From a virus (lineage: Duplodnaviria > Heunggongvirae > Uroviricota > Caudoviricetes), in the IMG/VR virus record IMGVR_UViG_2718218139_000007: a stretch of 64,000 bases of DNA, one strand, 5' to 3'. Shown in pieces: positions 19,964-24,570 of the stretch (position 1 is its first letter; each line of letters begins with the position of its first letter). Position numbers and translations under genes: made by a program. The notes below the pieces were generated by a model. It searched no databases. It worked only from the letters and a program-made list of their open reading frames with translations, and was not told the origin of the DNA.

Positions 19964-20233
19964 ATGAATATTTTGAGAAAGCTTATGGAGCGTCTGTGTG
20001 GTTGCGAAAAGCATGATGACCGTGAAAACGGGGAGTTACTTACAGCACAACTGCGACTGGGACCGGCAGACATTCTGGAGTCCGATGAGAATGGCATTAT
20101 CCCGGAGCAGGACAGGGTAATCACGCAGGTGGTGATACTGGATGCGGATAAAAAGCAGATACAGTGCGTGGTAAGACCGCTGCAAATCCTGCGTGCTGAC
20201 GGGAGGTGGGAAAATATTGGCGGAATGAAATAG
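19964..20233 (+). CDS. Small conserved ORF downstream of tail fibre (possible tail-fibre assembly/chaperone-like, 89 aa)
   Basis: Start 1 nt after the fibre stop; 3' end and terminator repeated at three other places; second full copy at 62315-62584. Confidence 0.55.
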   Translation: MNILRKLMERLCGCEKHDDRENGELLTAQLRLGPADILESDENGIIPEQDRVITQVVILDADKKQIQCVVRPLQILRADGRWENIGGMK

Positions 20234-20250
20234 CCGACAGCTTCACAAAA

Positions 20251-20272
20251 CCGGAGTCCGGCTCCGGTTTTT
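20251..20272 (+). terminator. Rho-independent terminator
   Basis: GC hairpin CCGGAG-N5-CTCCGG followed by a T5 run. Confidence 0.7.
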
Positions 20273-20452
20273 GTTGTCATGTATAGGGGATATTTGTTAT
20301 TAGAGTGTGAAGTAATAAACATGTTAATACGATGGAGTGAAGGATGCCTTTAAGGAGCAGTGATATGTCCATCTTGTTCCCTGGAGGGGGAATCATAAAT
20401 TCTGATTGCGACCGAGGCATGGAACACTACTGTAGTTCAGGGAAGTTCGGCG

Positions 20453-20995
20453 ATGAAGCTCATTCTTGCGACGCGTAATTATTATCTGGAATATGGTTTG
20501 CGTTTGTTACTGAAAGGATGCCGTGTAATTCTGGCTCAAGAATTTTTTATGCCGGAGAATCGCAGGGTTATTCTGGATAGTAAAGAATCCTGGTTAATAA
20601 TCTGTGATAGTCAGTTGGGCCATTTAATGCGCAGCATGTTTCAGGGACGCCGTTTTATTCAGCTGGATCTGGAAGCGTTGAAAGGGGGACATGATATACA
20701 TAATGCTGTGCGTAACAGATTGTGGACCTGGAACAAAAAAGCACGGGCACTGACGATGTCAGAGATGGTGGTGATGTTTGGATATATCTACCGTCAGTTG
20801 CGTCCGTTCCATCTCGCCAGTGAGATGAGGGTAAACATAAAAACAGTTAACACTTTCCTGTATTCAGGGCTGGCGAAAAATGGGCTCAAAAGAAGTAGTG
20901 TAAGGTTGCTGGCAATTTCTGAGAACAAGCGAATAGGGCATTATTCCGGAGCAGGACAGGGTAATCACGCAGGTGGTGATACTGGATGCGGATAA
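20453..20995 (+). CDS. LuxR/GerE-type HTH regulator candidate with repeat-derived 3' end
   Basis: C-terminal region resembles a LuxR-type HTH (LTMSEMVVMFG…VNIKTVNTFLYSGLAKNGL); last ~20 codons read into a duplicated fragment of the tfa-like gene. Confidence 0.45.
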   Translation: MKLILATRNYYLEYGLRLLLKGCRVILAQEFFMPENRRVILDSKESWLIICDSQLGHLMRSMFQGRRFIQLDLEALKGGHDIHNAVRNRLWTWNKKARALTMSEMVVMFGYIYRQLRPFHLASEMRVNIKTVNTFLYSGLAKNGLKRSSVRLLAISENKRIGHYSGAGQGNHAGGDTGCG

Positions 20996-21065
20996 AAAGC
21001 CGATACAGTGCGTGGTGAGGCCGCTGCAAATTCGGTGTGCTGATGGGACGAGGGAAAAATTTGTG
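20937..21065 (+). repeat. Partial duplicate of the 3' end of the tfa-like gene (copy of about 20093-20225)
   Basis: About 125 bp of near-identity to 20093-20225 with a few substitutions. Confidence 0.8.
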
Positions 21066-21476: not shown

Positions 21477-22799
21477 TTAGACTCTTGTTTCTTGGATTAT
21501 ATCAACGGTATCAACATAATTTGATGGGTTATGATGTGGTGAGTTATTGCTTTCGATATTGATGACCACATCCTCTGGATTTGGATGCCGTTGTCCAACA
21601 GATACACCTTCTTCCATTGCGCGTATATCAGCCCCTGTGGCATGTTCAATATCTGCTTTATTTGGGAAAATGGCACCTTCTCTTGCATGCCACCATATAC
21701 GAGGATAGTCAGTGAATCTGGCCTCTCCAAACTCGGCCTTGTTTAAATCAGCCAGTCCAAGAGTAGTACCTGCCCACCATAAAATAGTGTCTGGCTTTAA
21801 TCCGGGGGTATTATACTGTATGGCATGCCCCGCTGCTTGCCCAACCATTGCACCGATATGAGGACTTAACATTGGATCTGTACCAGTAAATCTGGATACT
21901 GCAAATCCCCCTACAGCACCAAGCGCATTTGCGGCAGCATTGGTAAGAACGGCATATTTAGTATTAGGGTTATCTAAATCCCACTTGAAATGTGCGCCAA
22001 ACTCCAGCCCTAGAGTTGCCTGTAGTGGAGATGCACCATATTTAAAATCTGCTTCTCCCGGTCTGATCACCCACTCTTCAGTATAATTTGCTTTGGGGCC
22101 ATCAGGAGTAAGAGGAGTTTCTCCAACAAGCTTCCATCCATTTTCAGTTTTGACTATAGGAAGTTCCACACCATGATTACGAACTACTTGAGCTGTTAAT
22201 CCAAACCATGGTATTGGGTCTTTTGACGCGGTGGTTACCGTCGAAGTAGTGGCTGATGCAATAGTGGATGCAGCAGTCGATACAGTGGTTGGTATATTGC
22301 TGTTGCTTAATGCATTTTTTAATGGACCAGGAAGGTCTTTAAAATTAATACCTATTTCATCATGCAAAGGGAATATCTGTAAAAAATAATTACCTGATGT
22401 AGGATGAATATCTGGTTTTACAATGTTTAGCTGGACACCATATTTACCAGAGATACCCGGAACGGTGCTGGGTATTTCTAATGCCATCTGAGAGACATTG
22501 AATAAACCAAACATATCCAATGCTTTTTTTCCTGCAGAGCCTTCTTCAAGATGAGGTGCAAGATATTTATCCAGCCCAGAGAGCAGACCTTCATCTTTTA
22601 TCAAGCTCAGTAGAGCTGTTGTTTCACCGCATTCCGGTGCATGTCGCTGCATATCCTCTGGGATATGAACAACAAATCCCGTTTCGCATCCATTAGGTAA
22701 TTCGGATTGCGGTATTTGTGTAGGGGACGTTTGTTCTGCGTGATGATGTCGATTGTTTTGTGTGGTGATTCCGGATGTTACGATCGGTTGAATGTTCAT
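21477..22799 (-). CDS. nleA: Type III secreted effector NleA/EspI
   Basis: 440-aa protein with Ser/Thr-rich central region and C-terminal PDZ-binding motif ETRV; length and termini match recalled NleA. Confidence 0.8.
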   Translation of the reverse strand: MNIQPIVTSGITTQNNRHHHAEQTSPTQIPQSELPNGCETGFVVHIPEDMQRHAPECGETTALLSLIKDEGLLSGLDKYLAPHLEEGSAGKKALDMFGLFNVSQMALEIPSTVPGISGKYGVQLNIVKPDIHPTSGNYFLQIFPLHDEIGINFKDLPGPLKNALSNSNIPTTVSTAASTIASATTSTVTTASKDPIPWFGLTAQVVRNHGVELPIVKTENGWKLVGETPLTPDGPKANYTEEWVIRPGEADFKYGASPLQATLGLEFGAHFKWDLDNPNTKYAVLTNAAANALGAVGGFAVSRFTGTDPMLSPHIGAMVGQAAGHAIQYNTPGLKPDTILWWAGTTLGLADLNKAEFGEARFTDYPRIWWHAREGAIFPNKADIEHATGADIRAMEEGVSVGQRHPNPEDVVINIESNNSPHHNPSNYVDTVDIIQETRV

Positions 22800-23169
22800 G
22801 ATAAATCCTTATTGCATGTTTATATCCATTAATAATATCAATCCATTGATATTATTAGTGTCACATATCCGATGTGGACAGCTTTAATATATAGCTGTTT
22901 GAATGCTTGATTGATGTGACTTAGATCTCAAAATTAAGTTGTTAAATTTACCAGTTTATCGCTTGAACACTTAAAATAAATTATAAATCCTTCTGTTATT
23001 GTTTTTATAATTCAAATTATTGTTGGTTGTATAACTTGATTACATCTTTACTCTAAGTGTTATAAATATTTTATACTGATATTAGTTTTATTATATATAT
23101 TCTTAATGAAAATGAGCATAAAACTAAGACATATAATGCTTGGCAGCTTTATGCTCTTCTGATTGGCTG

Positions 23170-23454
23170 TATGTTTGATGACAAAAAATTAGCGCAAGAA
23201 GAAAAAATCACCTTGCGCTAATGCTCTGTCTCAGGTCACTAATCACACCTAACTCATTGATTAATTGTGACTCTAAATGTAGTGTTTTGTCGCGTTTTGC
23301 AGTATGTTATTTAATCTATTATATGAATAACATAATGATTTTTAATGTATTTTTGTAATTTACTCTCCTTCTGACATGGAAGTTGTTCGTTCAAAATCTT
23401 ATTAAATATCAAGTTGTTAAATCTGGTAAGTCATTATTGGTCAAAATAAAATCA
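23170..23454. other. Unrecombined attP-like region (sib-like hairpin, P-arm-like and P'-arm-like sequence) adjacent to the int remnant
   Basis: Strong resemblance to recalled phage lambda sib/attP flanks (TGACAAAAAATTAGCGCAAGAAG…CCTTGCGCTAATGCTCTG…, GTCAAAATAAAATCATTAT…TTTGTCCCACTCCC) but no lambda core GCTTTTTTATACTAA. Confidence 0.55.
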
Positions 23455-24420
23455 TTATCCGATTTCAATTTTGTCCCACTCCCGCTCGCGACTGTCCCTA
23501 TAATGCGCCGCCATTGAATCAGATTTATGTCCAAGAAGACGTTGTGCAAACTTGTAGCCAATCTGGTTCCGATATAGCCTCGCGGACAGACTACGTAGTT
23601 CATGAAATGTCGGTGGGTCTCCATCAAACGAGATCCCGGATGCATTTCGCGCCTTTGTTAAATACCGTGATACTGTGGCTGGAGAAAGTGGTTCGTGATA
23701 GGTTGATGCGATTATTGTTTCACTGCTGCTGGCCTCCCTGCATTTCTGTAGTGTATCAACCAGTGAGATGTCGAGTGCGTCAATGGTTAGAGCCAGCGGA
23801 ATGGCAATTTTGGCTCCTGTTTTACTCTGTCCAATGTGAAGATGACCATCGTTTATGTCTGACCACTTCATTCTGCACAAATCGCCCACTCTCTGCCCTG
23901 TAACGACAGCTAAATCCATTGACAGCCTCAGCCAGATGGGGAGGTGCTCAGCAGCATGGTAAATAGCGACATACTCATTAGCTGTCAGCCTTGAGCGCCT
24001 TACTTCTGACTTTGCTGCACGGGTTGTTGTTACTGGATTCGTTGCCACATGCCCCTCGGCTATTGCCCCTCGAAAAACGTCAACAAGGGTTGACCTGATT
24101 ACTCTTGCGGAAACCGCTTTACCTTCTGCGACGTAGGTGTTTAGCATTGCTGCCACCTCTTTCGTTGATATGTCAGTGAGCGGTTTGTCCGGCAATTTTC
24201 TTCGAATTGCCCTGATTTTGCTGGCGTAGTCGAGTAATGTTTTCGGCTTGCTCCCCCTCTAGCTGAGGATTGTTTCATATCGATCAAGCCACGTATGAAG
24301 AGTGATTGAGTCAGTGCCTTTAACCCTGTCCAGCAATGATTCGTGCCCACTTTCGCTGAAAAGCTCAATGTTGGTGTGAATGCTTCTGAAATTGCTACTC
24401 TTCTGTCTCTTCCCAGCCCG
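23455..24420 (-). pseudogene. int: Lambda-Int-like tyrosine integrase remnant (5'-truncated, internal amber stop)
   Basis: C-terminal 246-aa ORF ends …LLGHKSDSMAAHYRDSREREWDKIEIG like lambda Int; upstream in-frame sequence continues through a TAG codon and is cut off where the tfa-3' repeat begins. Confidence 0.8.
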
Positions 24421-24442
24421 AACTCTTTTTTCGTCCTCGGGT

Positions 24443-24570
24443 CAGTGTGTAGTAAGACCGCTGCAAATCCTGCGTGCTGACGGGAAGTGGGAAAATATTG
24501 GCGAAATGAAGTAACCCGATAGCTTCACAAAAACCGGAGTCCGGCTCCGGTTTTTGTTGTCATGTACGGG
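24443..24570 (+). repeat. Third copy of tfa-like 3' end plus terminator hairpin
   Basis: Near-identical to 20180-20280 and 62530-62630, including the CCGGAGTCCGGCTCCGG-T5 terminator. Confidence 0.8.

Follow-up and report, generated by a model that had tools for sequence, protein, structure and literature searches.

Truncated tail-fibre gene stubs and phage attachment sequences as a probable assembly record of an exchangeable effector locus in a lambdoid prophage

The IMG/VR record IMGVR_UViG_2718218139_000007, a 64,000-nt stretch of Caudoviricetes DNA that we call the window, carries a cluster of virulence effector genes punctuated by remnants of a small tail-fibre gene. Sequence comparison identifies it as the effector locus already known from the ompW-type lambdoid prophage, represented by Sp9 of O157 and PP4 of E2348/69. 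Window positions 19161-27529 are 98.2% identical to E2348/69, where the same three copies of the repeated element are found, and identity to O157 Sp9-type loci is 97% from 21174 onward. As in those two prophages, genes for type III secretion system effectors (nleA, nleH1-2, nleF, nleG, and espM1) stand behind tail-fibre genes, an arrangement known from lambdoid prophages as the exchangeable effector locus (EEL; Tobe et al. 2006, as cited in PMC8112680). RefSeq already lists the fragments, which lie beside a truncated integrase, as pseudogenes under the name "phage tail fiber C-terminal domain-containing protein" and marks them incomplete. Here we describe the fragments, two phage attachment sequences lying among them, and the history that they suggest for the cluster.

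Two lambdoid tail modules are present in the window, at approximately 1-20299 in the host prophage and 49905-62653 in a second, Shiga toxin 2 (Stx2)-type prophage, and each closes with a gene for an 89-aa protein. In the host prophage, the 3' part of a side tail-fibre gene (19090-19962, plus strand) encodes collagen repeats (PF01391) and a Phage_fiber_C domain (PF06820) and is homologous to 61422-62314 of the second prophage. It is followed by the native small gene (19964-20233, 270 nt, plus strand). Residues 28-89 of the small gene product match PF06820 at an E-value of 1.1e-36 and 125 bits (cut-off 25), and the same domain forms the end of the preceding fibre protein. The sequence-only reading of this DNA had called the gene tfa, a name that we do not retain: PF06820 was its only Pfam match, there was no match to a Tfa- or Caudo_TAP-type profile and none in NCBIfam, and RefSeq names it a "phage tail fiber C-terminal domain-containing protein." The label "tail fiber assembly chaperone" in one phage 434 record is the annotator's own. 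At nt 162 the small gene carries a Chi-like octamer, GCAGGTGG.

Downstream of the native gene lie a predicted hairpin terminator (20247-20272, plus strand; AAAACCGGAG-TCCGG-CTCCGGTTTT), recognized by folding and pattern searches, and a 30-nt post-terminator box (20268-20299, plus strand; TTTTTGTTGTCATGTATAGGGGATATTTGTTA) that ends in TGTTA. The second prophage repeats this order with its own small gene (62315-62584), hairpin (62599-62624), and box (to 62653), all on the plus strand and identified by blastn, folding, and translation. When the native region was searched against the window, 62251-62653 matched 19900-20299 at 90.8% identity over 403 nt (E = 2e-160). Exactly three instances of the hairpin core CCGGAGTCCGGCTCCGG are present in the window, at 20251, 24534, and 62603, against an expectation of zero from 100 shuffles. 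These copies fold at -21.2, -21.5, and -23.1 kcal/mol, respectively, with z-scores of -4.5, -4.7, and -3.7, and thus form the stable G+C-rich hairpin characteristic of intrinsic (Rho-independent) terminators. The TTTTT that follows the G+C stem pairs with an upstream A-run, and the hairpin was not flagged as a terminator in a consensus scan. The element has no match in Rfam.

Read 5' to 3', the conserved element therefore consists of the 3' part of the Phage_fiber_C gene, the hairpin, and the box. Native copies span 20093-20299 and 62444-62653, and partial copies lie at 20937-21067 and 24443-24582. The sequence-only reading had reported a repeated 3' end plus terminator at these four places. 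The blastn comparison bears this out at approximately 90% identity, with its coordinates right to within about 10-20 nt, except that the terminator-bearing copies run on through the box to 20299, 24582, and 62653. Homology among those copies stops at one and the same nucleotide, immediately after ...GATRTYTGTTA; comparisons with O157 (including Sp9), O26, phage 2851, phage 434, and Stx phages end at this point as well. The side-tail-fibre module of lambdoid phages ends on the right with the hairpin and box, and variable cargo starts after the box.

The first cargo region of the host prophage (20300-20936, plus strand) holds an uncharacterized open reading frame (ORF; 20453-20995, 180 aa). The ORF ends inside the second copy of the element, as the sequence-only reading had noticed, although it enters that copy in another reading frame, so that its final ~20 codons derive from the repeat read out of frame. 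Its earlier description as LuxR-like finds no counterpart in the databases: neither a LuxR-type helix-turn-helix nor any other family was found in Pfam (E up to 10) or NCBIfam (E up to 1), and the ORF has no sequence relative in the PDB. A role as a Psr regulator was also rejected, given that the ORF has no family match and that Psr proteins, the regulators found in effector prophages, are of the AraC type and unrelated to it. Up to approximately residue 155, the product shares 67% identity with a hypothetical protein of 175 aa (L009 4005-4532) from an O170:H18 strain, where the homologue adjoins a YadA-like adhesin gene and ykgJ. A decayed copy lies behind the same small fibre gene in Stx2a phages of the 933W/Sp5 type (L010 4001-4226).

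The second copy, which we call stub 2 (20937-21085, plus strand), was delimited by blastn and by alignment with O157 Sp9 and O26. It begins at about nt 130 of the small gene, where it is joined in a different frame to the unrelated ORF's 3' end. Its first part (20937-21067) matches native positions 20093-20224 at 90.2% identity over 132 nt (E = 2e-46). This copy lacks a hairpin because a 66-nt internal deletion removed it, together with the last nine codons, the stop codon, and the start of the box. Past the deletion, stub 2 is collinear with the native junction of small gene, box, and nleG in O157 Sp9 and O26. An N-terminal remnant of nleG (DUF1076; 21125-21247, plus strand) follows, collinear with an O157 nleG pseudogene (L002 7520-8094) relative to which ~590 bp are gone. 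Next comes the effector gene nleA (21477-22799, minus strand), assigned from annotation of homologous loci. Beyond an attachment sequence considered below lies a lambda-type integrase remnant (23455-24442, minus strand) that contains frameshifts and has lost ~68 nt of its 5' end, as judged from Pfam matches (PF00589, PF22022, and PF02899), its RefSeq entry as a pseudogene, and alignment to an intact integrase gene at locus L006.

The third copy, stub 3 (24443-24582, plus strand), cuts off the integrase 5' end just upstream of nleH, as the sequence-only reading had stated. Identified by blastn, folding, and translation, it begins at approximately nt 199 of the 270-nt gene and comprises the last 23 codons and stop (24443-24514; translation QCVVRPLQILRADGKWENIGEMK*), a hairpin (24529-24555), and a box (24551-24582). 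It matches native positions 20162-20299 at 90.7% identity over 140 nt (E = 1e-49), and only patchy microhomology is present at its junction with the integrase remnant. The cargo behind it (24621-26167, plus strand) is nleH1-2 (24621-25532) and nleF (25598-26167), supported by the Pfam families OspG_kinase and NleF_casp_inhib and by existing annotations. To the right of nleF lie a remnant of an IS256-family transposase gene (26214-26848, minus strand), collinear with the RefSeq annotation of E2348/69 (L001 13352-13986), and then a second attachment sequence. The copies, at ~90% identity, sit exactly at the module boundaries, as first proposed. Bracketing by copies on both sides does not extend to the nleH/nleF block, which has one on its left only.

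Intact counterparts of these arrangements exist in other genomes. With a "restored" query made of the fibre gene 3' end, the full small gene, and the sequence from stub 3 onward into nleH, at least 80% coverage in a single place was found in 235 complete genomes. At the zinT locus of enteropathogenic Escherichia coli (EPEC) E110019 and of Z1323HEC0393 (loci L024 and L025), an intact series of J, lom, fibre gene, small gene, and terminator leads directly into nleH-nleF. The window is collinear with these two from exactly 24443, the left edge of stub 3, at 91.0% and 88.7% identity. The order of fibre gene, terminator, and nleG is likewise intact in O157 and O26. Comparison of cargo in related genomes, a check proposed in the sequence-only reading, thus recovered intact forms for both nleH and nleG, with the same element ahead of varied cargos. 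In each case, homology to the intact version starts exactly at the stub edge. From this collinearity it follows that the cargo to the right of each stub once stood behind a fibre gene, of which the stub is the truncated end. Loci L007 and L026 provide additional, independent cases in which a fragment of an integrase or another gene adjoins a stub ahead of cargo.

The two attachment sequences identify where some of this DNA came from. The first (22800-23454) comprises a P arm (22800-23371), an 11-nt core, TGACATGGAAG (23372-23382), and a P' arm (23383-23454). It was recognized by comparison with an O111:H8 prophage at yfaT (DUF1175), whose left end (L006) encodes the closest intact integrase and whose right end (L028) carries NleG-IS'-nleA (IS, insertion sequence). 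Window positions 21380-23382 are 97.9% identical to the nleA-attR end of that prophage, up to the core; from the core on, the window follows the attL/integrase side of the same prophage type at 85%. The core is common to attL and attR of the O111:H8 prophage and to the window at 23372, as expected of an attachment site. Since the window switches arms at this core, 22800-23454 is the intact attP of a yfaT-integrating nleA phage. An intact attP in turn implies that the block from stub 2 through the nleG remnant, nleA, and attP to the truncated integrase represents one yfaT-site phage genome in vegetative (circular-map) order, which on this sequence comparison entered by a route other than its own attachment site. 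Positions 23171-23354 had been considered as chromosomal DNA; comparison with K-12 ruled this out, and they belong to the phage P arm. The block of nleA, attP, and truncated integrase also occurs on a 66-kb plasmid (L011) at ~87.5% identity.

The second attachment sequence (26845-27126) is the fossil attR of an att-lambda phage. A phage P arm (26845-27044) leads to the core GGCTTTTTATACTAAT (27045-27060), a lambda-type core one T short of that of lambda, and then to ~80 bp of chromosomal DNA from the attB-ybhB intergenic region (27048-27126). The whole is ~80% identical to the attR of prophages beside ybhB-bioA (L005 and L007), and 27048-27126 matches the intergenic region of K-12 (L008 2832-2918) at 82.8%; P arm, core, and chromosomal B' flank are thus all present. 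As their cores differ, the two attachment sequences are not the attL and attR of one integration.

Beyond the window, the 207-nt element was found in 697 of 5,426 complete E. coli genomes, at a median of 12 places per genome, and in 297 phage records, mostly Stx phages and including phage 434. Contigs encoding exactly the same small protein came from this same locus only. A hairpin scan of IMG/VR returned 136 instances in 120 contigs, 96 with the full small gene and 24 scored as 5'-truncated stubs; three more keep just ~17 nt of homology ahead of the hairpin. The left partners of the stubs are diverse (nleG, J, lom, the N-terminus of a fibre gene, int, and gpI-like and gpK-like genes). Stub starts, with stub 2 of the window included, fall at about nt 130, 146, 150, 155, 195, 197, 199, and 272, and none falls within nt 2-129. 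Independent truncations with starts confined to the 3' half, despite very different left partners, were seen at L033, L041, L044, L051, L074, L101, L110, and in the window. Of the 136 instances, ~127 retain the box, and 14 downstream classes, which fall into about seven families, start right after TGTTA. Hairpins also recur at a spacing of ~868 bp (L033 3686-4576 and several other IMG/VR loci). This unit holds an nleG between a native gene with terminator and a stub with terminator, and another nleG follows, such that nleG cassettes are stacked with the same punctuation.

The truncated stubs, their non-homologous left junctions, the intact ancestral arrangements elsewhere, and the identities of attP and attR lead us to view the cluster as a concatenation of the right ends of different prophages, in which the stubs are scars of non-homologous joins. 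We give this reading a probability of roughly three in four. Each stub would record a single non-homologous joining of two lambdoid genomes. One of them, the left partner, would have broken downstream of its own cargo (for the second module, just inside int) and the right partner inside its small fibre gene; the cargo of the right partner would then have been stacked behind that of the left, along with the stub, terminator, and box. The resulting modules would be, in order, the tail module with the uncharacterized ORF; stub 2 with the nleG remnant, nleA, attP, and the integrase remnant; and stub 3 with nleH and nleF, followed by the IS256 remnant and the att-lambda attR with its captured chromosomal DNA. 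We infer the order of events from this layout. The joins may have taken place between replicating phage genomes, yielding a hybrid phage, or in the chromosome between adjacent prophages with later deletion of backbone. Redundant phage DNA would have been lost while the terminator, box, and leader were kept for expression or insulation of the cargo, and later homologous recombination or gene conversion within the element may re-assort cargo and spread it between the copies, of which a genome has about a dozen.

Several observations weigh against this reading. An undeleted intermediate, with intact integrase, whole phage, and small gene-nleH, was not found, and the join is reconstructed rather than observed. 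The clustering of stub starts in the 3' half of the gene is not predicted by random breakage alone and calls for either selection for compactness or a hot spot. Independent random joins also leave unaccounted for the sharp common boundary after TGTTA across about seven cargo families. Finally, an IS256 remnant lies between nleF and attR, so a single phage source for the two is not required, and their link is conjectural.

Retention of the hairpin and box, along with the sharp boundary, might instead be explained by selection if they act as a functional head of the cassette, serving as an insulator, part of the cargo promoter, or both. This is a tentative explanation, to which we give somewhat less than even odds, and one that complements non-homologous joining rather than replacing it. 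The 113 bp upstream of nleH2 are enough for maximal expression (Holmes et al. 2012, PMC3299786). Mapped with the start codon at 24621, that stretch covers the final codons of stub 3 and continues through the hairpin and box and a 38-nt leader. Retention of the box in ~127 of 136 instances, ahead of 14 cargo classes, agrees with such a role, as does the position of the hairpin-less stub 2 in front of a dead nleG. On the other side, the consensus scan that passed over the hairpin also gave no sigma-70-like promoter in the box, and the element's lack of an Rfam match counts against a functional head as well. A promoter in the box had been considered from a -35-like TTGTCA; the scan returned nothing there, and the idea is retained as a weak alternative on the strength of the published reporter data.

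The sequence-only reading had attributed the cargo to homologous recombination through the shared element, for instance by Campbell-style insertion of a circle that leaves bracketing direct repeats. For substrates of RecA, we looked for uninterrupted identity above ~25-30 nt between copies. The native copy shares exact runs of up to 55 nt with stub 2 and up to 37 nt with stub 3, both of which should be adequate on sequence. The number of element copies per genome also favours such exchange, as does the intact attP, which implies that the second module did not enter through its own attachment site. Alleles and boxes are strongly re-assorted against cargo classes. We tallied 94 full-length copies from IMG/VR contigs, defining an allele by the exact sequence of the gene's final 140 nt. 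Of 48 such alleles, 7 stand before at least two cargo classes (maximum of five), 11 of 14 cargo classes sit behind at least two alleles, and one identical box stands before up to four cargo classes. At the population level, homologous exchange through the element is therefore supported, and this part of the original proposal stands. It does not extend to the origin of the internal copies. Homologous recombination alone cannot make truncated left edges or junctions to int and to an unrelated ORF, so at least one non-homologous event per stub is needed, and the two stubs begin at different positions. Had the native copy recombined with stub 3, the DNA between them would be deleted and a full small gene joined at high identity to the nleH of this lineage; no such product was found in 5,426 genomes, where the best full-length matches reached 92-94%. 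We thus consider it unlikely that homologous recombination brought in each cassette. Insertion by homology of a circle that already carried a truncated stub would be topologically the same as the stacking of prophage right ends that we favour.

Integrase-mediated nesting or tandem lysogeny, in which the nleH-nleF or nleA phage entered an att site in or beside another prophage whose backbone was later deleted, would account for an integrase remnant accompanied by two att-type sequences. Integration of prophage into prophage is documented at this very locus (PMC8112680), and the second prophage of the window is such a case. The attachment sequences themselves argue otherwise: the one between nleA and the integrase remnant is an unrecombined attP with a yfaT-type core, the one after nleF has a lambda-type core, and the two make no pair. 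Tandem lysogeny at att-lambda was rejected as the source of the nleA-att-int block, since it calls for a lambda core in the middle attachment site, where none is present. Integrase-mediated entry in general seems to us rather improbable.

A more speculative idea is that the hairpin and TGTTA-ending box form a dedicated docking site at which cargo is swapped at one fixed nucleotide, perhaps doubling as an insulator or promoter head. We think this quite improbable; if true, EELs would be an analogue of an integron array driven by RecA or by an unknown recombinase, and not a pile of random scars. Outright integron-like, site-specific cassette exchange with the hairpin and box as recombination site is very hard to credit, for although a boundary common to the single nucleotide precedes about seven unrelated cargo families and identical boxes stand ahead of different cargos, no recombinase is associated with the element (the only integrase is the decayed lambda-type remnant), the right ends of cassettes are att sites, IS remnants, or gene fragments without a matching site, and the left ends of the stubs vary.

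The proposed history draws on established features of phage evolution. Lambdoid mosaicism arises by non-homologous recombination followed by selection and is marked by "morons" and by conserved boundary or linker sequences between modules (Hendrix, Juhala, and Clark). The locus shares with it cargo beyond the late-operon terminator, non-homologous joins, a short conserved boundary sequence, and homologous re-assortment. It differs from general lambdoid mosaicism in that the stubs are retained and stacked in series, leaving the order of accretion readable. Specialized transduction offers a second parallel, as in the capture of bio and gal by lambda: here too, ~80 bp of chromosomal DNA from beside att-lambda lie next to a phage P arm and core, although the captured piece is only a short non-coding flank and now resides in a prophage at another chromosomal site.

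Accretion of phages into prophages has been described for this locus by Nakamura et al. (2021; PMC8112680), who reported effector cargo arriving with phages that land in the EEL of defective ompW prophages. The window agrees with that account in having a second (Stx2-type) prophage inserted in the first and chromosome-derived att fragments inside prophages. It departs from it in that the second and third modules were not joined by integrase, the attachment site between them being an unrecombined attP, and in that the att-lambda fossil adds a further captured piece of chromosome to the three attB-in-prophage sequences given there (yecE, ykgJ/ecpE, and ompW). Two segments of the window, 29763-29925 and 32362-32536, one of them after espM1, are ~71% identical to K-12 ykgJ/ecpE and probably represent what Nakamura et al. 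call attB-in-PP_2. In the published accounts of the locus consulted here, Tobe et al. (2006) aside, the stubs, the intact yfaT-type attP, and the att-lambda attR fossil are not discussed.

Other features of the two prophages were seen in passing. The tail-tip (J-type) ORF of the host prophage, within 16165-19193, encodes just 708 aa compared with ~1,158 aa in related prophages, and identity to E2348/69 falls from 98% to 83% left of 19161; the tail region is therefore degraded and mosaic. The second prophage carries stx2, with the A-subunit gene split by indels into ORFs at 47930-48301 and 48357-48863, an intact B-subunit gene (48879-49148), and three tRNA genes just upstream (47571-47821). Past its own terminator and box, after 62653, the second prophage has cargo of its own (62794-64000): an nleG-like N-terminal fragment and then a NleC-type zinc metalloprotease gene with an HEIIH motif that extends beyond the end of the window.

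The locus was already known and its pseudogene stubs were already annotated; what becomes more precise is its history of accretion, and the current picture of lambdoid mosaicism and of prophage-driven effector accumulation is unchanged. Together, the stubs, the attP, and the fossil attR would constitute a readable assembly record for one of the best-known effector clusters of enterohaemorrhagic E. coli and EPEC. The cluster would derive from three phages or more, which formerly occupied different sites in the chromosome, namely yfaT, att-lambda, and the present ompW. The combination of stub, hairpin, and TGTTA box may be used as a simple guide for dividing effector loci into the modules from which they descend, and it also flags direct repeats through which nleA or other cargo could be lost.

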